DNA of 47,118 nt from a virus (Duplodnaviria; Heunggongvirae; Uroviricota; Caudoviricetes), in IMG/VR virus record IMGVR_UViG_2634166512_000003. One strand, 5' to 3'. The number at the start of each line of letters is the position of its first letter. Positions within the stretch are counted from its first letter, which is position 1. Made by a program: the position numbers and the translations under genes. The notes below the pieces were generated by a model. That model worked only from the letters and a program-made list of their open reading frames with translations. It ran no database searches and had not been told where the DNA came from. This document shows positions 6,838-21,044 of the stretch, one piece after another.

Positions 6838-7251
6838 CTATTTTGTCTGGTTTTTGGCTTCAAGTAGTTCTTTTAGCAGTAGATCGAAGTGCTCTCTTTT
6901 TTCTTTTAGCTCATTGATTAATTTATTTTTTTCGCTCTCAGGCAGTCCTCTGAATAGTTGCAGTAGAGCCTGTTCTTGCGGGGTTAGTTCTTGATTGTAA
7001 TTACCCGGGTGTAGCGTGGATTCATCCAAATATTCCCCTTCATTCATGAAGAAAAAATGAACAGGGTATCCGGTCACTTTTGCTAGCTTGTCTAATTTAT
7101 CTTTTCTTGGAGTTACCCCATTACACCATGCCTGAACTGATTGAGCCGTAACCCCAATATGGCGAGCTAACTCAGATTGAGACCAGCCTAAGTCTTTTAG
7201 AATCCGTTGTAGTCGGCTAGCAAAAGCCATGTTTTTCGTTTTTGTGTTCAT
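6838..7251 (-). CDS. prophage repressor, DicA-like (XRE-family HTH N-terminus, no autopeptidase domain)
   Basis: HTH region LKDLGWSQSELARHIGVTAQSVQAWCNG; C-terminal LLQLFRGLPESEKNKL resembles DicA as recalled; divergent from a Cro-like gene; ORF-track start at 7266 is TTG, first ATG at 7251 preferred. Confidence 0.75.
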   Translation of the reverse strand: MNTKTKNMAFASRLQRILKDLGWSQSELARHIGVTAQSVQAWCNGVTPRKDKLDKLAKVTGYPVHFFFMNEGEYLDESTLHPGNYNQELTPQEQALLQLFRGLPESEKNKLINELKEKREHFDLLLKELLEAKNQTK

Positions 7252-7266
7252 ACCGTAAGGATACAA

Positions 7267-9645: not shown

Positions 9646-10071
9646 ATGGAATTACAGGACTGGCGAAAAGAACCTCGTAAAAACTATTCGAATGAATTCA
9701 AACTTCGTATGGTGGAACTGGCATCACAACCTGGAGCTTGTGTTGCACAGATTGCACGTGAAAATGGCGTCAATGATAATGTTATTTTCAAATGGCTCAG
9801 GCTCTGGCAGAACGAAGGGCGTGTTTCGCGGCGTCTTCCGGTAACGACCTCTTCTGACACTGGCGTTGAATTATTACCTGTAGAAATAACGCCGGATGAG
9901 CAGAAAGAACCTGTGGCGGCCATTGCGCCGTCTTTATCCACTTCCACTCAGACCAGAGTCAGTGCCAGTTCCTGCAAGGTGGAATTCCGTCACGGTAACA
10001 TGACGCTGGAAAATCCATCGCCAGAGCTGCTCACAGTGTTGATCCGTGAACTGACCGGGAGGGGAAGATGA
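9646..10071 (+). CDS. IS66 family accessory protein Orf1 (TnpA-like)
   Basis: 141-aa HTH-containing protein, first of the IS66 three-gene set. Confidence 0.8.
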   Translation: MELQDWRKEPRKNYSNEFKLRMVELASQPGACVAQIARENGVNDNVIFKWLRLWQNEGRVSRRLPVTTSSDTGVELLPVEITPDEQKEPVAAIAPSLSTSTQTRVSASSCKVEFRHGNMTLENPSPELLTVLIRELTGRGR

Positions 10072-10418
10072 TCTCACTCCCATCAGGTACCCGTATCTGG
10101 CTCGTTGCCGGCGTTACCGATATGCGTAAATCCTTCAACGGACTGGGAGAACAGGTACAACATGTGCTGAATGATAATCCCTTCTCCGGTCACCTGTTTA
10201 TCTTCCGTGGCCGACGGGGTGACACCGTCAAAATTCTTTGGGCTGATGCTGATGGTCTGTGCCTGTTCACCAAACGCCTGGAGGAAGGCCAGTTTATCTG
10301 GCCTGCGGTACGTGACGGCAAGGTATCCATTACCCGCTCGCAACTGGCAATGCTCCTCGATAAGCTGGACTGGCGTCAGCCAAAAACATCCAGCCGTAAC
10401 TCACTGACAATGTTGTAA
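10068..10418 (+). CDS. IS66 family accessory protein Orf2 (TnpB-like)
   Basis: 116-aa protein overlapping Orf1 stop (ATGA), characteristic IS66 arrangement. Confidence 0.8.
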   Translation: MISLPSGTRIWLVAGVTDMRKSFNGLGEQVQHVLNDNPFSGHLFIFRGRRGDTVKILWADADGLCLFTKRLEEGQFIWPAVRDGKVSITRSQLAMLLDKLDWRQPKTSSRNSLTML

Positions 10419-10448
10419 AAAACTCCTGACCGCATTATAAAAACGGTC

Positions 10449-12062
10449 ATGAGTCAGAAATACCTCATTCGCATCGCAGAGCTGGAAAGGTTGCTCTCTG
10501 AGCAGGCTGAAGCCCTCCGTCAGAAAGACCAGCAACTGAGTCTGGTTGAAGAGACGGAAGCCTTCCTGCGCTCTGCACTGACACGTGCCGAAGAAAAGAT
10601 CGAAGAAGATGAACGGGAAATAGAACATCTGCGGGCTCAGATAGAAAAACTGCGCCGGATGCTGTTCGGTACCCGTTCTGAAAAACTGCGTCGTGAAGTT
10701 GAACTGGCTGAGGCTCTGCTGAAACAACGTGAACAGGACAGCGATCGTTACAGTGGGCGGGAAGACGATCCTCAGGTTCCCCGCCAGTTGCGACAGTCGC
10801 GCCATCGTCGTCCGTTACCGGCACACCTTCCCCGTGAAATACACCGCCTGGAGCCAGAAGAAAGCTGTTGCCCGGAGTGTGGCGGTGAGCTGGATTATCT
10901 GGGGGAAGTCAGCGCTGAACAGCTGGAACTGGTGAGCAGTGCCCTGAAAGTGATCCGCACAGAACGGGTAAAAAAAGCCTGTACAAAATGTGACTGTATT
11001 GTTGAAGCACCGGCGCCGTCCCGCCCGATAGAGCGTGGTATCGCGGGCCCCGGATTACTTGCCCGCGTGTTAACGGGAAAATACTGCGAACATCTGCCAC
11101 TGTATCGTCAGAGTGAAATCTTTGCCCGCCAGGGTGTCGAACTGACCTGGGCCTTACTCTCCAACTGGGTTGACGCGTGCTGCCAGTTAATGACACCGGT
11201 GAATGATGCCCTGTACCGTTATGTAATGAACACCCGCAAGGTTCACACTGATGACACACCGGTAAAGGTACTGGCACCGGGTCAGAAAAAGGCGAAAACA
11301 GGGCGTATCTGGACGTATGTCCGGGATGATCGCAATGTGGGTTCGTCATCTCCTCCAGCGGTCTGGTTCGCGTACTCGCCGAACCGGCAGGGGAAACACC
11401 CGGAGCAACACCTCCGCCCCTTCCGGGGTATCCTGCAGGCGGATGCGTTCACAGGTTACGACAGGTTGTTCAGTGCAGAACGTGAAGGTGGTACACTGAC
11501 AGAAGTTGCGTGCTGGGCCCATGCCCGGCGAAAAATCCACGATGTATACATCAGCAGCAAAAGTGCGACGGCAGAAGAAGCCCTGAAGCGAATCAGTGAA
11601 CTGTACGCCATCGAGGATGAAATACGGGGATTACCGGAGTCAGAGCGTCTTGCCGTCAGGCAGCAGCGAAGCAAAGTGTTACTGACGTCGCTGCATGAAT
11701 GGATGGTGGAGAAGAATGGTACGCTGTCGAAAAAATCCAGACTGGGCGAAGCGTTCAGCTATGTACTGAATCAGTGGGATGCCCTCTGTTATTACAGTGA
11801 TGACGGTCTGGCGGAGGCGGATAATAATGCTGCGGAAAGAGCGCTTCGTGCAGTCTGTCTCGGAAAGAAAAACTTTATGTTCTTTGGCAGCGATCACGGC
11901 GGCGAGCGTGGAGCACTGTTGTACGGGCTGATCGGCACCTGCCGTCTGAACGGTATCGATCCGGAAGCGTATCTGCGCCATATCCTGAGCGTACTGCCGG
12001 AATGGCCTTCCAACCGAGTTGACGAACTCCTGCCATGGAACGTAGTACTCACCAATAAATAA
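10449..12062 (+). CDS. IS66 family transposase
   Basis: 537-aa protein with N-terminal coiled-coil/leucine zipper, CxxC zinc motif and DDE-type core as recalled for IS66 transposases. Confidence 0.85.
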   Translation: MSQKYLIRIAELERLLSEQAEALRQKDQQLSLVEETEAFLRSALTRAEEKIEEDEREIEHLRAQIEKLRRMLFGTRSEKLRREVELAEALLKQREQDSDRYSGREDDPQVPRQLRQSRHRRPLPAHLPREIHRLEPEESCCPECGGELDYLGEVSAEQLELVSSALKVIRTERVKKACTKCDCIVEAPAPSRPIERGIAGPGLLARVLTGKYCEHLPLYRQSEIFARQGVELTWALLSNWVDACCQLMTPVNDALYRYVMNTRKVHTDDTPVKVLAPGQKKAKTGRIWTYVRDDRNVGSSSPPAVWFAYSPNRQGKHPEQHLRPFRGILQADAFTGYDRLFSAEREGGTLTEVACWAHARRKIHDVYISSKSATAEEALKRISELYAIEDEIRGLPESERLAVRQQRSKVLLTSLHEWMVEKNGTLSKKSRLGEAFSYVLNQWDALCYYSDDGLAEADNNAAERALRAVCLGKKNFMFFGSDHGGERGALLYGLIGTCRLNGIDPEAYLRHILSVLPEWPSNRVDELLPWNVVLTNK

Positions 12063-14949: not shown

Positions 14950-15744
14950 ATGACAACTCAAGTATCCGCAGCAGCCATCTCCCCGATTATCCACAACCAA
15001 CTTCCCGTCCTCACCACCGAATTACTCGCGAATCTCTATGGCACAGAGCCGGATTACATTCGTAAAAACCATAACCGGAACTCAGAGCGATTCGTGGTCG
15101 GGAAGCATTACTTTTTGCTCGAAGGTGAGGAGTTGCGCGAATTTAAGCACAGCATGTCTTTAAGACCTCCTGTGAAAATCGCCAGAAATGTCCGCTCTCT
15201 CATCCTCTGGACAGAACGCGGCGCAGCTCGCCATGCCAAAATGCTGGAAACAGAACAGGCCTGGGAAGTTTTCGAAAAGCTGGAAGATTGTTATTTTAGC
15301 CAGCGTCCAGAGAGGCGGAGTACAACCACCGATGACCGCACTCCCTTACGTGATGCCGTTAATATGCTGGTCGGTAAGAAAGGCATGATGTATCCCGATG
15401 CCTACACCATGATTCACCAACGTTTCGCCGTCTCTCACATAGAACAACTGTCACAGACGCAAATGTTAGAGGCGATTGAATACATCCACTGCCTGCTACT
15501 CGATGAAAATCAGCCAACCATTCCAGATTTTTCTTTTATCACCACTATCAAAAATGGAAAAGTGACCAGGATGCGCCATGTTGCCAAAGGCGAACATCTG
15601 ATGACGTTTGACGCTTTCAAAGAGATCGCTGAGCGGGCAGGGTATCTGGTGATCCACAGCGACAACCTGCGAAGTATGACGCTGGATAAATTGATGGTAA
15701 TGGGGAAAAAGTCGGTTGTATCCGTTGCTGATTCAGCATTTTGA
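14950..15744 (+). CDS. antirepressor / Roi-like protein with N-terminal KilA-N/ORF6N-type domain
   Basis: N-terminal region (LPVLTTELLANLYGTEPDYIRKNHNRNSERFVVGKHYFL) resembles ORF6N/KilA-N antirepressor domains as recalled. Confidence 0.55.
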   Translation: MTTQVSAAAISPIIHNQLPVLTTELLANLYGTEPDYIRKNHNRNSERFVVGKHYFLLEGEELREFKHSMSLRPPVKIARNVRSLILWTERGAARHAKMLETEQAWEVFEKLEDCYFSQRPERRSTTTDDRTPLRDAVNMLVGKKGMMYPDAYTMIHQRFAVSHIEQLSQTQMLEAIEYIHCLLLDENQPTIPDFSFITTIKNGKVTRMRHVAKGEHLMTFDAFKEIAERAGYLVIHSDNLRSMTLDKLMVMGKKSVVSVADSAF

Positions 15745-16845: not shown

Positions 16846-17471
16846 GAATTCCCTTTAGAGTAAGGATTGGTTTTTAAGACGCGGTCTGTAATCAGTTCCG
16901 AGAGCTACAGTAAACAACGCTGAGCACTGAACGCATCACAGGCAAGGTAAAAGGTGATATCGGCAAAGGCTGTGAAACCTTTAATTCAACAGATGGGAAC
17001 GGTATGCACAGGATCCTGTAACGACGCTCCCAAAACCGGAAACCTGTAAGGCATGTTTTCGCTGCTGAACTTAATATACGAACCTGCACTATCATGAACA
17101 TATTTTATATCGTTATACCCCGAGTGATTGTGCCCGGCAATGGATAGTGTCCTGGAGGAACTATTTCTACTGTAAAAGGTAGACATTTAATTTCAGTGTG
17201 GAATTATTCCCTGCTGTTAATAACCATGGCTCTATATGGCACCGAGCGGACTAGTTAACTTGCCTGAAAGCCGCTATGAGTGAGGAGCGAATATTGGCAC
17301 GATAGGATACCTGAACCATTTTTTGGACATGCGCTAAAAGCGAATGATTAGTTTTATCGGAATATTTACAGTATACTTACAAGGCAAGCTTGGCGTACCG
17401 TCTTGGGCGAGATTGCTTAAATTATTTTGTGGATATATCATTCAAACAAAAGATAATAAAATGAGGTTGTT

Positions 17472-17669
17472 ATGTCATATATTCGCGTAGAGAAAGATGG
17501 CCTTCAGTATGAAGCAGAATACTTCCGTGAAGAGGATATGGTCACAGTCTTTGGGGTTAGAGGAGGGCATTCCAGCGTGGTTCTAAATGGAATGACAGAA
17601 GTCGCGGCTGCTCGTACTGCGTTACGAAATCTTATTAGAGAAAATCAGGTTGATCCTCTAACTGATTAA
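17472..17669 (+). CDS. hypothetical small protein (65 aa)
   Basis: ORF in AT-rich island upstream of the T5orf172-like gene. Confidence 0.35.
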   Translation: MSYIRVEKDGLQYEAEYFREEDMVTVFGVRGGHSSVVLNGMTEVAAARTALRNLIRENQVDPLTD

Positions 17670-17873
17670 AAATAAGCCATCTTAACTGAGAGCATATTTT
17701 GATATAATTTAGATTAAATCTATTTTGAAGGTTAGTTTGGGATGAGAAGATTACATCAAAACCGTTATTACTAGCAATAAGTTGTGTAAATCAAATAATA
17801 CATAATCAGGTGGTAATATATACTAAGCGTAGTAAAGTTTTTATATATTCCTGTAACTTTGTGAGAAACTTCC

Positions 17874-18539
17874 ATGAAAGCCGACAACTTAAGAATTATA
17901 GAGAATGGCAAATATGTTTTCGATATGTTCTTGGATACTGGTGAATTTTACTATACAAGTCATGCCTTTGACACGAGAGAAGATGCAAAAAGCTGGATGG
18001 AAGAATGGCAGATTTGGGCAAATAATGTATCGAGTGGGAAAGTAAGTAGTATTTATTATATTTTACAAGTGCCTGATACTTGGGCCGGTTCTTCAGATAA
18101 AAATAACCCTTACTCGGGACTTTATGTGAAAATAGGGCGTTCCAATAATGTGCTAAAAAGGTTGTCTAACCTGCAGACAGGTGCATTTGGTCAATTAATA
18201 TTACACGCTTTGGAACCAGGTGGTTCAGAAAAAGAAAACTATCTTCATGAAAAATTTAGCAACGAAAGACGTCAAGGTGAATGGTTTGTTTGTACTAAGG
18301 AACTTACCAAGCATATATTTACAACATGGTTTAAAAACAAAATGCTCCCACCAGAACATCAAATAAAAATAATGCAGCTCGCAGAAAGAACAGGTATTTA
18401 TTCGCATGTTCATACACTAATGGGGGGGAAGCCAGACTTAGTAAACCCATCTATTAGTGAACCTTGGGAATGCGAAAAATATGTTTTGGTTGATATGATT
18501 TATAGCTCTTTAGCAAAGCAAGTTAATCATAAAAAATAA
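17874..18539 (+). CDS. T5orf172/MUG113-type (GIY-YIG superfamily) domain protein with uncharacterised N-terminal domain
   Basis: Motif GLYVKIGRSNNVLKRLSNLQTG...LHEKFSNERRQGEWF matches the recalled T5orf172 consensus (YVKIG...R...L..TG...LH..F...R..GEWF); AT-rich codon usage. Confidence 0.7.
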   Translation: MKADNLRIIENGKYVFDMFLDTGEFYYTSHAFDTREDAKSWMEEWQIWANNVSSGKVSSIYYILQVPDTWAGSSDKNNPYSGLYVKIGRSNNVLKRLSNLQTGAFGQLILHALEPGGSEKENYLHEKFSNERRQGEWFVCTKELTKHIFTTWFKNKMLPPEHQIKIMQLAERTGIYSHVHTLMGGKPDLVNPSISEPWECEKYVLVDMIYSSLAKQVNHKK

Positions 18540-18664
18540 AGTGTTACATTTTAACTATACAATTATTGATTCACTAATGAAGAGGTGATTTAGACGTATG
18601 AAGTTTTAATAAGCTCCAAGAATATTTTGTCATACATGGGTTAAAGAGTTATATAATAATATCT

Positions 18665-18722
18665 GCTTCTGGAACACAGCAGACAAGCACCTGCAGATAA
18701 AGGTCTGCTGAGAGCGAGAAGC
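18665..18722 (+). other. nested inverted-repeat element (possible structured RNA) in intergenic gap
   Basis: GCTTCT...AGAAGC outer stem enclosing CAGCAGAC...GTCTGCTG inner 8-bp stem with 18-nt loop. Confidence 0.3.
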
Positions 18723-18859
18723 GGATCATACGTTGGAAGTTGTTTAGGCAAATACGTTATAAACGTATTTGATTAAATTTACTTGGATCATAGTCTTCAA
18801 TAACGCTTTATTATATTGTTTTTCATGCAGCAAACAGGTTCACAGGTAGGTAATAAGCT

Positions 18860-19264
18860 ATGAGTGGATGGAAAGAGCCTTTTACATTAGCAGAACAGAT
18901 ACAATTAGCATTAAATTTAGGTTATGAGGCTGTACCAGATGAAGAGGCATATACTGGGGCATACTTCATTAAAGGTGGTAAGAAGTGGATCTTTAACATC
19001 ATCGGTCTCAAAAAGACATTGAATATATCTTCAGATGATGAACTAAGAGGGCAGGATTATGATGTTGATATGTATTTCGAAATTCGCCAAAATTGGGCAC
19101 AATACCAAGATATGATCTTTGGAAGCGAAGATATCACTCCTTCACCTAAAAATGAACTTACTTCAATTTACCATGACCTGCAGGTAACGGATGAACCCAG
19201 GGAAATGGTGTATCTTTCTGATGGGATGTGGCTGGCTCCCAACGGACGAATTGTACAACGATAG
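18860..19264 (+). CDS. hypothetical protein (134 aa), possible partner of T5orf172-like protein
   Basis: Co-oriented ORF downstream in the same AT-rich island. Confidence 0.45.
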   Translation: MSGWKEPFTLAEQIQLALNLGYEAVPDEEAYTGAYFIKGGKKWIFNIIGLKKTLNISSDDELRGQDYDVDMYFEIRQNWAQYQDMIFGSEDITPSPKNELTSIYHDLQVTDEPREMVYLSDGMWLAPNGRIVQR

Positions 19265-19373: not shown

Positions 19374-19979
19374 TTACTTGCGTTTAAAAAGGTATTTTGT
19401 CACGACCAGCACGAGGCCGAATACCTCTGTCAAAGTACCGCCCATGTACAACTGTAGTGTTAAATCCTCAAATTCCAGCTTACCTGCGCCGTCGGCAATA
19501 AATACACCATTCATTATCAGAAGTTGGCAAGCAAGGATAATCAGGAACCATTTCCCGTATCGTTTTTTTAGAGCGATTTCTGCTTCAAAATCTTTGTTGT
19601 TGAGTTGTTTGCGCTCATGCTCGGTATCAAGTGAATTCACCTGTTTCACAGATGTGAACTCGGTCAAGATTTTACTCTCAGTACGGGTGACTTGTTGAGA
19701 GGGTGTAACAGTTGGAATTCTTTTGCTAGACGCAGCTACAGCCATTTTGCGAGCTTCGGCAGCTCTTTTTCTGGCTATTCCGCGAATACGGACAGCCGTT
19801 TTTTTGGGGGCGTGCGAAACCTTTGGCTGAGGTGAAGTTTCGTCAGGAGACTGAACCGGGGTTTCATCGTCCCCCGGCTCAACCTCTTCTGCTAACTGAC
19901 GGTGTAGGTTGAGGGAATCCTTCAGTCGGCGTGCAACTTCCTGTTTGAAACGGCTGTTAAAATCGTCATCCGATGGCAT
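19374..19979 (-). CDS. Lys/Arg-rich protein with two C-terminal transmembrane helices
   Basis: Hydrophobic segments WFLIILACQLLIMNGVFIA and LTEVFGLVLVVTKYLF near the C-terminus; start 10 nt after ImmA-like stop; 3' end coincides with repeat copy B. Confidence 0.55.
   Translation of the reverse strand: MPSDDDFNSRFKQEVARRLKDSLNLHRQLAEEVEPGDDETPVQSPDETSPQPKVSHAPKKTAVRIRGIARKRAAEARKMAVAASSKRIPTVTPSQQVTRTESKILTEFTSVKQVNSLDTEHERKQLNNKDFEAEIALKKRYGKWFLIILACQLLIMNGVFIADGAGKLEFEDLTLQLYMGGTLTEVFGLVLVVTKYLFKRK
19384..19454. repeat. copy B of about 70-bp direct repeat (coding 3' end of the 19374..19979 gene)
   Basis: Near-identical to 15783..15852. Confidence 0.8.
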
Positions 19980-19988
19980 TCTAAAGCG

Positions 19989-20477
19989 TTACCCCAACCT
20001 CAAGTTCTTTAAACGATAAGTCATCGCATCGTCAGATACGCCAAAATAATGCGCCATTATATAACTTGGTTGGCCGTCAGCGTGCAGTTTTCTGACCTCA
20101 TCAACCGGCATCAGAAGTTCTGCTGCGAACTTGTTCGCAAAAATTTCATCAGGATGCGTTCCGGCGCTTGCGGTTTCGCCACGTAAATCAACGTACTCAT
20201 ATTCATCACTATGCGATGCTTGCCGGGCGATGTAATGCCCCAACTCATGCCCACATGAAAAACGTTGACGAACTTTGTTGTCATCACTGTTTAGAAAGAT
20301 CGCTGGATCTTGATCTTTTTGTTTAATCAGTGCGCCAGAAACTTTCCCAGGAAGATCGGTAATAAAAACATCTAATCCCATGTCGTGAGCAATTTTCGCT
20401 GGATCAACAGGGAAACCACGCCCGCACCAGAACGTGTCCAGCACTCGCCGGGCGTGCTCTCTTGGGTTGGTAGCCAT
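19989..20477 (-). CDS. ImmA/IrrE-family metallopeptidase
   Basis: HELGHY zinc-binding HEXXH motif in a 162-aa protein; GGAG RBS upstream. Confidence 0.7.
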   Translation of the reverse strand: MATNPREHARRVLDTFWCGRGFPVDPAKIAHDMGLDVFITDLPGKVSGALIKQKDQDPAIFLNSDDNKVRQRFSCGHELGHYIARQASHSDEYEYVDLRGETASAGTHPDEIFANKFAAELLMPVDEVRKLHADGQPSYIMAHYFGVSDDAMTYRLKNLRLG

Positions 20478-21044
20478 AGCTCCTCCAGTTACTGCATTAC
20501 GATTGTTGGTCGAAATATAGACAACATGTTCCGTACCACTTTCCTGTGAAAGTGCAAATTCTGCACTTCTGGTACGATATTAACTGTTAGTAGTAAAGTC
20601 TTCCAGATAAATCACTTTAAAATCTTGTGAATTGCTTGCTTTTTACGCTGCATTGTGGATGGCTCAATGTTTCCAGTAAAAACATACATGATAATCATGA
20701 CATTAGTGGTTTTTTAAGCGTCCATATGTTTCTTAAAAAAATGGATGCCACAAGAGGCCAGATGAGAACGGAAAGGGAAGGCTATTACATGTGTGATTTA
20801 TTACATCTGTAAAAAAATACAGATCTAACTTGATCTTTTCATTGAAGTTTTTCTTGGTCCTGGATAGGATCTGGAGGTTGCGAAGTTTTTAGAGTCGCAT
20901 CAAAGGGAAAGCCCTGACAGCGCCAACTGTCAGGGCCATACAAAAACATCGGTTAATGCTTTCGTTGAGATCTCGGTTTGGGAGATTACCTCAACCGGGA
21001 TCCCGTGTAAAGCATTCATTACCGAAAATGATATAGGTCAATGA

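Follow-up and report, generated by a model that had tools for sequence, protein, structure and literature searches.

A probable Kita-type RosmerTA toxin–antitoxin cassette in a lambdoid prophage of Escherichia coli

Introduction

How a gene for an ImmA/IrrE-type metallopeptidase comes to stand directly before a gene for a membrane protein, with no helix-turn-helix (HTH) partner at hand, is the question raised by positions 19374-20477 of a 47,118-nucleotide stretch of DNA from a tailed virus (Caudoviricetes; IMG/VR record IMGVR_UViG_2634166512_000003), the whole of which is referred to below as the window. This segment is filled exactly by two open reading frames (ORFs) on the same strand, encoding a peptidase of 162 residues and a membrane protein of 201 residues (Table 1). 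The original prediction, made from the letters of the DNA, started from the view that an ImmA-like peptidase normally has an XRE-family repressor as its partner, and proposed that the present pair might act either as an induction protease in trans or as a protease-controlled membrane effector. The premise is incomplete, because RosmerTA pairs, in which a protease serves as the antitoxin, have been described since 2022-2023.

The analysis described here suggests that a RosmerTA cassette of Kita type (HTH-less), with toxin–antitoxin (TA)/abortive-infection function, is encoded by the two genes, and that a lambdoid E. coli prophage carries it as a moron. We put the probability of this reading at roughly 0.7, because both proteins are homologous to an experimentally tested pair of Gordonia phage Kita. 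The pair is a new relative of an already known phage-defence module and not a new system. A 'hypothetical protein' and an 'ImmA/IrrE peptidase', hitherto an unannotated pair, can now be treated as a testable RosmerTA-type module, although it opens no new category of biology.

Results and Discussion

Homology to the RosmerTA pair of Gordonia phage Kita

The 'ImmA protease antitoxin' hub corresponds to node D25, and the RosmerTA pair of Gordonia phage Kita is the tested case on which our interpretation leans (Ernits et al. 2023, PMC10440598). In that pair, RmrA-D25 (YP_009301393.1) is a Peptidase_M78 protein, and RmrT-D5 (YP_009301394.1), annotated as 'transmembrane', has a C-terminal membrane region; RmrT-D5 stops macromolecular synthesis and rapidly depolarises and permeabilises the membranes of E. 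coli, RmrA-D25 neutralises this toxin incompletely, and the two together guard E. coli from Bas54 and Bas59 (PMC10440598).

The link to Kita was reached via the peptidase and then by comparison of toxin profiles. When the window peptidase was searched with tblastn against 50,697 phage genomes, gp32 of Kita (RmrA-D25; 44% identity over 93% of the query, E 5e-31) and its cluster mates led the matches after an identical E. coli copy, and BLASTP of the window peptidase against RmrA-D25 gave 43% identity (E 1e-41). Kita gp33 (RmrT-D5), in turn, scores 40 bits against the profile of the window's toxin family, and hhalign aligns the family with RmrT-D5 at a probability of 96.4% (E 1.3e-9) over 79 columns, including the T..EV.G….IT..LF core. 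Shared by the two pairs are a stand-alone, HTH-less M78 peptidase of about 160-180 residues, followed by a small protein with a C-terminal two-helix membrane domain of the same family, the gene order (peptidase first), and an accessory region of a temperate phage as the site of carriage. The Kita pair differs in its host phylum (Actinomycetota), in the 4-base overlap of gp32 and gp33, as against a 9-base gap in the window, and in its toxin, which has 119 residues and lacks both the N-terminal helix and the long disordered linker.

Several observations weigh against this assignment. The likeness of the toxin to Kita RmrT is remote and is seen at the profile level only; tblastn of the toxin against the phage genomes gave no match, and the additional N-terminal helix and linker of the E. 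coli toxin, 80-100 residues long, are absent from Kita RmrT and from most members of the family. In PADLOC 2.0.0, the best match of the window peptidase is capP (2e-25), the matches to RmrA being partial (6e-12 and weaker) and confined to its peptidase portion, and the window toxin is matched by none of the RmrT models. The numbers of sites in promoter and terminator scans were not above those in shuffled sequence, that is, at chance level. For the Kita pair itself, neutralisation was partial and modelling of the complex gave no reliable result (PMC10440598).

The Kita proteins, when run through PADLOC, give a like pattern, with capP best, RmrA partial and the toxin unmatched. The window pair is therefore homologous to the validated HTH-less RosmerTA subtype, which those models miss. 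Literature searches on ImmA/IrrE with transmembrane or anti-phage topics, on Peptidase_M78 and on M78 found nothing directly on the window pair.

The peptidase

The 162-residue protein matches the Pfam family Peptidase_M78 (PF06114) with an E of 7.7e-18 and 65 bits, the cut-off being 22 bits, and the phrog_87 metallo-protease profile with an E of 4e-30. Its HExxH…E site is intact, with H77, E78, H81 and E111 invariant in an alignment of 40 homologues, in which a β-sheet face made up of VSGAL.K and P.I.L is conserved as well. The AlphaFold2 model has a predicted local distance difference test score (pLDDT) of 90 and a predicted template-modelling score of 0.86, and its only significant matches among solved structures are CapP, IrrE/PprI and an XRE-peptidase regulator of Mycobacterium tuberculosis. 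The predicted ImmA/IrrE-type identity and the HExxH-dependent fold are thus upheld by the profile search, the invariant site and the CapP/IrrE-like model alike. The peptidase domain begins at the very start of the protein, which carries neither an HTH-like nor a GAF domain and corresponds to the catalytic N-terminal domain alone of the ~290-residue CapP and IrrE (TM-score on the target 0.40).

The systems CapP/CapH and IrrE(PprI)/DdrO are related to the window peptidase as the closest solved structures, as the best PADLOC match of the catalytic domain, and in having the same Zn ligands. CapP and IrrE are composed of peptidase, HTH-like and GAF domains with an inter-domain groove for single-stranded DNA (ssDNA), and CapP has been modelled to hold an amphipathic substrate helix by a hydrophobic surface beside the active site (PMC13228613); the conserved VSGAL.K and P.I.L face of the window peptidase corresponds in position to that surface. 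In contrast, the window peptidase has no HTH-like or GAF domain and hence no inter-domain groove, no cysteine in the loop between HExxH and E111 as in CapP, and no HTH substrate gene, and the pair is not placed beside a larger defence operon as its regulator. Because the groove used by CapP and IrrE is missing, sensing of ssDNA is unlikely as the trigger of the window peptidase.

A separate observation concerns Cys75 (window positions 20253-20255, in RFSCGHELGH), located two residues before HExxH and invariant in the 40 homologues. This residue is kept in the proteins of Kita and of Mycobacterium phage Che9c, is replaced by valine in a P2-like relative and by glutamine in the CapP of Thauera, and is distinct from the 'cysteine switch loop' cysteine described for CapP.

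The membrane protein

No Pfam or PADLOC match was obtained for the membrane protein, which falls in phrog_5346 (function not annotated). Its hydropathy peaks near residues 142-164 and 174-196, in agreement with the layout of the AlphaFold2 model (mean pLDDT 62), which has helices at residues 4-32, 119-164 and 174-199. Both lines of evidence thus bear out the earlier view that the partner of the peptidase is a membrane protein with two C-terminal transmembrane (TM) helices and not an XRE repressor. That it should also be 'disordered' and 'Lys/Arg-rich' is correct in its first half, residues 34-118 having pLDDT values below 50, but this linker is only mildly basic (15 K/R against 10 D/E, with 8 Pro), and its first third is acidic and Pro-rich.

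From the positive-inside distribution of charges, the protein is predicted to form an N-in/C-in hairpin, by which the entire N-terminal region would lie on the cytoplasmic side, the same as the peptidase. The second TM helix (174-199) ends in KRK, and the polar residues Q152, N157, T182 and E185 sit within the TM helices. Strong conservation in the family is confined to the last ~85 residues, in which the motif LKK.Y..WF..IL..QL..MN..F..G..L.F...L.LYMGGTL.EVFG.VLV.T.YLF is near-invariant in two alignments (A1 and A4). The linker, on the other hand, varies in length among homologues by tens of residues, up to about 100, and the helix at residues 4-32 is conserved solely in the enterobacterial subfamily, where L19, L23 and R27 are invariant and V15 and N24 nearly so (alignment A1). 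The toxin's extended, disordered N-terminal region is the variation that distinguishes the window pair.

Scans of 60 members of the family with Pfam and PADLOC returned only scattered weak matches (DUF1129, DUF2207_C and one CBASS 2TM), all of which were set aside as compositional; the CBASS effector 2TM model PDLC00669 was matched by a single one of the 60 (E 0.006) and not by the window protein.

Pairing and mobility of the cassette

A scan of genomes for loci of the family, made with a narrower alignment (A5), recovered 30 loci from Gamma- and Betaproteobacteria, Nitrospirota, Desulfobacterota and one metagenome-assembled genome of Bacillota, and in all 30 the peptidase gene lies directly upstream on the same strand (E 1e-59 to 1e-81). 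The same pairing was found at loci of Klebsiella, Cronobacter, E. coli, Pectobacterium, Silvimonas, Endozoicomonas and Salmonella, at metagenome loci, and at all other loci examined. In Klebsiella, Cronobacter and other E. coli, a 162-residue M78 peptidase directly precedes every homologue of the membrane protein, and the peptidases of Pectobacterium, Silvimonas, Endozoicomonas and Salmonella (45-60% identity) are followed, 0-7 bases on, by a protein of 111-145 residues with the C-terminal motif. Among relatives, the two genes overlap by 1 base at one extreme and lie about 10 bases apart at the other. Although the two ORFs share a frame in the window, a fusion produced by stop-codon read-through was rejected, because the spacing in relatives breaks the frame.

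The family is large. A search of 1.84 billion representative proteins with the toxin profile gave 649 clusters at 50% identity, 181 of them at E <=1e-10, and the top 150 matches are all small proteins with the C-terminal two-TM domain and no other fused domain. A sizeable membrane-toxin family of the NetFlax 'D5' type is thereby tied to a short, HTH-less peptidase clade at every locus examined. The flanking genes have nothing in common: the 68 ORFs flanking 23 of the loci share no family and show no recurrent XRE HTH, but include flagellar and housekeeping genes, a Mu portal, integrases, Ogr/Delta and P4 beta. The sites of the cassette vary likewise, from the nin-like region and positions next to int/attL to P4-like islands and non-prophage chromosomal positions. 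The pair is a self-contained, mobile two-gene cassette.

These features bear directly on the first of the two functions proposed earlier, in which the peptidase would act in trans as an ImmA-like anti-repressor, cleaving the DicA-like repressor and inducing the prophage, with the membrane protein as an accessory or anchor. ImmA-type M78 peptidases do so for ICEBs1 and some phages (PMC13228613), and the window's repressor, which has an HTH_3 domain only and no S24 domain, indeed lacks an autocleavage domain, as had been noted. We nevertheless consider this function very improbable and at odds with the distribution of the cassette, which is found at prophage-free sites and with differing prophages and satellites, its membrane partner constant and its flanks free of any recurring regulator. 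Moreover, the cassette is separated from the repressor and cro-like genes by 13 kb and lies in the accessory region, outside the immunity/lysogeny-switch region; the closest tested homologue is an antitoxin, and the prophage already has a candidate antirepressor in an ORF6N-domain protein (PF10543, E 1e-18). For a prophage with a non-autocleaving repressor, the latter is a candidate for a more conventional induction route than the M78 peptidase. The absence of an adjacent HTH gene, on which the earlier proposal had also remarked, was confirmed, as no HTH-like ORF occurs among the ORFs of at least 20 residues in the 567-bp gap upstream of the peptidase gene, and a Pfam scan of the ORFs neighbouring the pair found no HTH domain. 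The ImmA/ImmR systems of ICEBs1 and phages resemble the window pair in that a mobile element encodes a small M78 peptidase that stands alone and is similar in size, but differ in that the adjacent HTH repressor that serves as substrate is missing in the window and in all relatives, its place being taken by a membrane protein, and in that the window pair sits outside the immunity region.

More distant peptidases, 37-45% identical to that of the window, are present in Mycobacterium phage Che9c (27464-28359) and in a P2-like phage (NC_070905, 31040-32216), where they precede small membrane proteins outside the window's toxin family: a 129-residue protein with one C-terminal TM helix in Che9c, the pair adjoining a HicAB-like pair, and a 159-residue protein with TM helices at both ends in the P2-like phage. 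These partners may serve the same antitoxin clade as alternative toxins, and their differences fit the partner-swapping described for the D25 antitoxin hub.

Comparison with other systems

The window pair has in common with canonical RosmerTA (Millman et al. 2022) the organisation as a two-gene TA/defence module, a COG2856/M78 zinc-peptidase antitoxin, a toxin of no known family and a prophage location. Canonical RmrA (357-400 residues in the PADLOC models), however, is twice as long, with an N-terminal XRE HTH fused to the peptidase; this HTH is missing from the window peptidase, whose alignment with those models is limited to roughly positions 145-290, and Kita RmrA is likewise without it. 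D25 proteins are stated to carry an HTH 'often', and in NetFlax the toxin gene comes first in 58% of D25 pairs (PMC10440598), whereas the peptidase comes first in the window.

Three further candidates were considered and set aside. In the TA system of the E. coli E101 prophage (Rousset et al. 2021), the toxin gene comes first, and the accessions (WP_001179380.1 and WP_000481765.1), by which the comparison was made, differ from those of the window pair. PD-lambda-2 (Vassallo et al.), composed of HigB, an Xre-peptidase and a third gene, has another architecture, and the peptidase of a Bacillus hotspot (PMC9122126) is a landmark gene only.

A functional analogue, with no kinship in sequence or fold, is provided by RexA/RexB of phage lambda. 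These proteins are expressed in the lysogen, and the cytoplasmic partner controls a small inner-membrane protein that collapses the membrane potential on superinfection; RexA, unlike the cytoplasmic partner here, is no protease, and RexB has four TM helices rather than two.

Proposed mode of action

By analogy with the Kita homologue and with RosmerTA generally, the 201-residue toxin would be inserted in the inner membrane as an N-in/C-in hairpin and, if left unchecked, would oligomerise via its polar TM residues to depolarise and permeabilise that membrane. In the lysogen, it would be kept harmless by the cytoplasmic zinc peptidase. That the pair shares a strand with int and the repressor gene is a usual trait of morons expressed in the lysogen. 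An antitoxin role of the peptidase is also in keeping with reports that rmrA deletion in RosmerTA is not transformable (bioRxiv 10.1101/2022.05.11.491447) and that rmrA is essential by transposon sequencing in three Pectobacteriaceae, ClpX being essential in the same three strains (PMC13566846). For other RosmerTA systems, a dependence on clpP and clpX has been reported. The second function proposed earlier, a protease-controlled membrane effector, comes close to what is known of the tested Kita homologue, in which a depolarising membrane toxin is paired with an M78 protease as its antitoxin (PMC10440598).

The manner of neutralisation can be outlined more tentatively. The peptidase may bind, and probably cleave, the cytoplasmic N-terminal or juxtamembrane region of the toxin. 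The invariant Zn site suggests that catalysis matters, and binding and cleavage would be in keeping with the conserved β-sheet face of the peptidase, the counterpart of the surface by which CapP is modelled to hold its substrate helix, and with the conserved amphipathic helices lying next to disordered sequence in the toxin. Certain phage infections might then upset the balance of toxin and peptidase, so that the cell would be shut down before the phage cycle ends. As a pair native to E. coli, the cassette would offer a convenient model for how an M78 protease neutralises a membrane toxin.

The same features can be read with the opposite polarity, the N-terminal helix and linker inhibiting the membrane protein until a phage-cued cut by the peptidase frees the pore, as in bacterial gasdermins. 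Such a sensor-protease/pro-toxin arrangement would account for a Zn site that is invariant across the whole clade, which speaks for selection on catalysis rather than on mere binding, and for a conserved cytoplasmic helix followed by a disordered, hypervariable and protease-accessible linker; other M78 enzymes (ImmA, IrrE and CapP) are signal-activated proteases (PMC13228613), and neutralisation by Kita RmrA is merely partial (PMC10440598). We regard it as unlikely all the same, as the Kita toxin is toxic alone and its protease lowers the toxicity (PMC10440598), rmrA genes act as essential antitoxins, most members of the family have almost no N-terminal extension that could serve as a pro-domain, and the window peptidase is without the GAF/HTH domains that form the ssDNA-sensing groove of CapP and IrrE. 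Doubtful to a similar extent is the idea that the protease is an infection sensor that processes the cytoplasmic region of the toxin, with the enterobacterial N-terminal helix and linker as a tunable substrate or decoy choosing the phages that act as triggers; if true, the pair would represent a minimal protease-gated membrane-pore immune switch.

Distribution in E. coli

The cassette is present in 448 of 5,426 complete E. coli genomes (about 8%) and always chromosomal; the one tblastn match of the toxin among 'plasmids' was in fact in a chromosome record. About 400 of the 448 copies share 98.9% identity, many of them from O25b:H4 strains of sequence type 131 (ST131), so that the pair is well represented in this pandemic lineage, and another subtype in E. 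coli, with a peptidase 75% identical, is rare (6 genomes). In one ST131 genome, the cassette occupies the same prophage position with different accessory neighbours, and its allele encodes an identical peptidase and a toxin that differs from that of the window at 4 residues.

Such an identical peptidase in a genome from the group of about 400, together with a TA-like architecture and carriage on prophages, satellites and islands, would also be expected of a pure addiction module, which only secures the maintenance of the prophage or island through post-segregational killing and does not protect from other phages. We consider this quite unlikely, since the tested Kita homologue defends against phages and relatives of the peptidase occur beside other TA genes and, in the P2-like phage, past the last conserved gene, a site reported as an antiviral hotspot. 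Addiction and defence are not mutually exclusive, and a Kita-type RosmerTA cassette, as preferred here, may also stabilise its prophage as an addiction module.

Two spacers of type I-E CRISPR arrays in E. coli, both flanked by canonical 29-nt repeats, match the cassette perfectly. That of strain GCM39-10-2-9-3-1 (NZ_CM170158.1) is identical at 32/32 positions to 20383-20414 in the peptidase gene, with ATG at 20380-20382 as the protospacer-adjacent motif (PAM), and that of strain 23CRST031 (NZ_AP045800.1) at 32/32 to 19392-19423 in the toxin gene, with AAG at 19389-19391 as the PAM. Some E. coli have therefore acquired immunity against DNA bearing the cassette. In addition, most E. coli genomes with the cassette show a second short matching place. 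The one short match inspected, in a genome without the full cassette (NZ_CM135823.1, 4198625-4198702), spans 78 bases that are 90% identical to the toxin gene at its 3' end, and perhaps it is left over from another copy.

Gene layout and prophage context

The positions of the features in and around the cassette are collected in Table 1. The short spacing and the common strand of the two genes suggest an operon or translational coupling. When the upstream DNA of five relatives was aligned, only the GGAGGA of the Shine-Dalgarno sequence and the start of the gene were conserved, everything further upstream diverging, and no conserved promoter or operator was found in this alignment. Two inverted repeats in the upstream gap of the window, a near-palindrome, GTGCAGAATTTGCAC, about 80 bases 5' of the peptidase start and a GC-rich hairpin about 430 bases upstream of the operon, are not conserved in relatives.

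Table 1 Features of the cassette and its surroundings in the window.
Feature	Position	Strand	Description
Peptidase gene (rmrA-like)	19989..20477	-	162-aa stand-alone M78 (ImmA/IrrE-type) zinc metallopeptidase, without HTH or GAF domain; predicted antitoxin
Membrane protein gene (rmrT-like)	19374..19979	-	'D5'-family membrane protein of 201 aa; toxin predicted to form pores and depolarise
Intercistronic spacer	19980..19988	-	9 bases between peptidase gene (5') and toxin gene (3')
Toxin residues 4-32	19884..19970	-	Predicted cytoplasmic amphipathic helix; AlphaFold2 pLDDT about 76-86
Toxin residues 34-118	19626..19880	-	Disordered linker, pLDDT <50; hypervariable in length and sequence
Toxin residues 119-199	19383..19625	-	Family-defining core: juxtamembrane helix, TM1, 9-residue acidic loop, TM2
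Shine-Dalgarno sequence GGAGGAG	20480..20486	-	Before the peptidase start codon; conserved 5' edge of the cassette
Promoter candidate	20688..20717	-	Weak, sigma-70-like, TTAAAA-18-TATCAT; from a consensus scan alone
Near-palindrome	about 20557-20571		5' of the peptidase start
GC-rich hairpin	20910-20937	-	12-bp stem
Repressor ORF	6838-7266	-	HTH_3 domain only
ORF6N-domain protein gene	14950-15744	+	Candidate antirepressor
IS66-family element	9646-12062		tnpA 9646-10071, tnpB 10068-10418, tnpC 10449-12062
Low-GC block	17400-19200		33-37% GC
Nuclease gene	17874-18539		GIY-YIG/T5orf172-type
134-aa ORF	18860-19264		Without family

The window represents a lambdoid E. coli prophage, the integration site of which lies next to tRNA-Ser and mtfA, and the DNA around the pair is 100% identical to that of strain RM10042 and several other strains. 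The pair is located in an accessory block between the gene for a DnaB-like helicase (replication genes) and that for antiterminator Q, on the strand opposite to early and late phage transcription. The repressor ORF is adjoined by a YdaT-like gene.

Between the replication-initiator-like and DnaB-like helicase genes, the window contains an IS66-family insertion element that is missing from the otherwise matching RM10042 prophage. Because of this insertion and of the length of the helicase ORF, 430 residues in the window against 463 in the RM10042 prophage, the prophage copy of the window may be replication-defective. The low-GC block, with surroundings of about 45-52% GC, is occupied by the nuclease gene and the 134-residue ORF, and in the ST131 prophage copy it is swapped for other genes, with the toxin–antitoxin pair retained.

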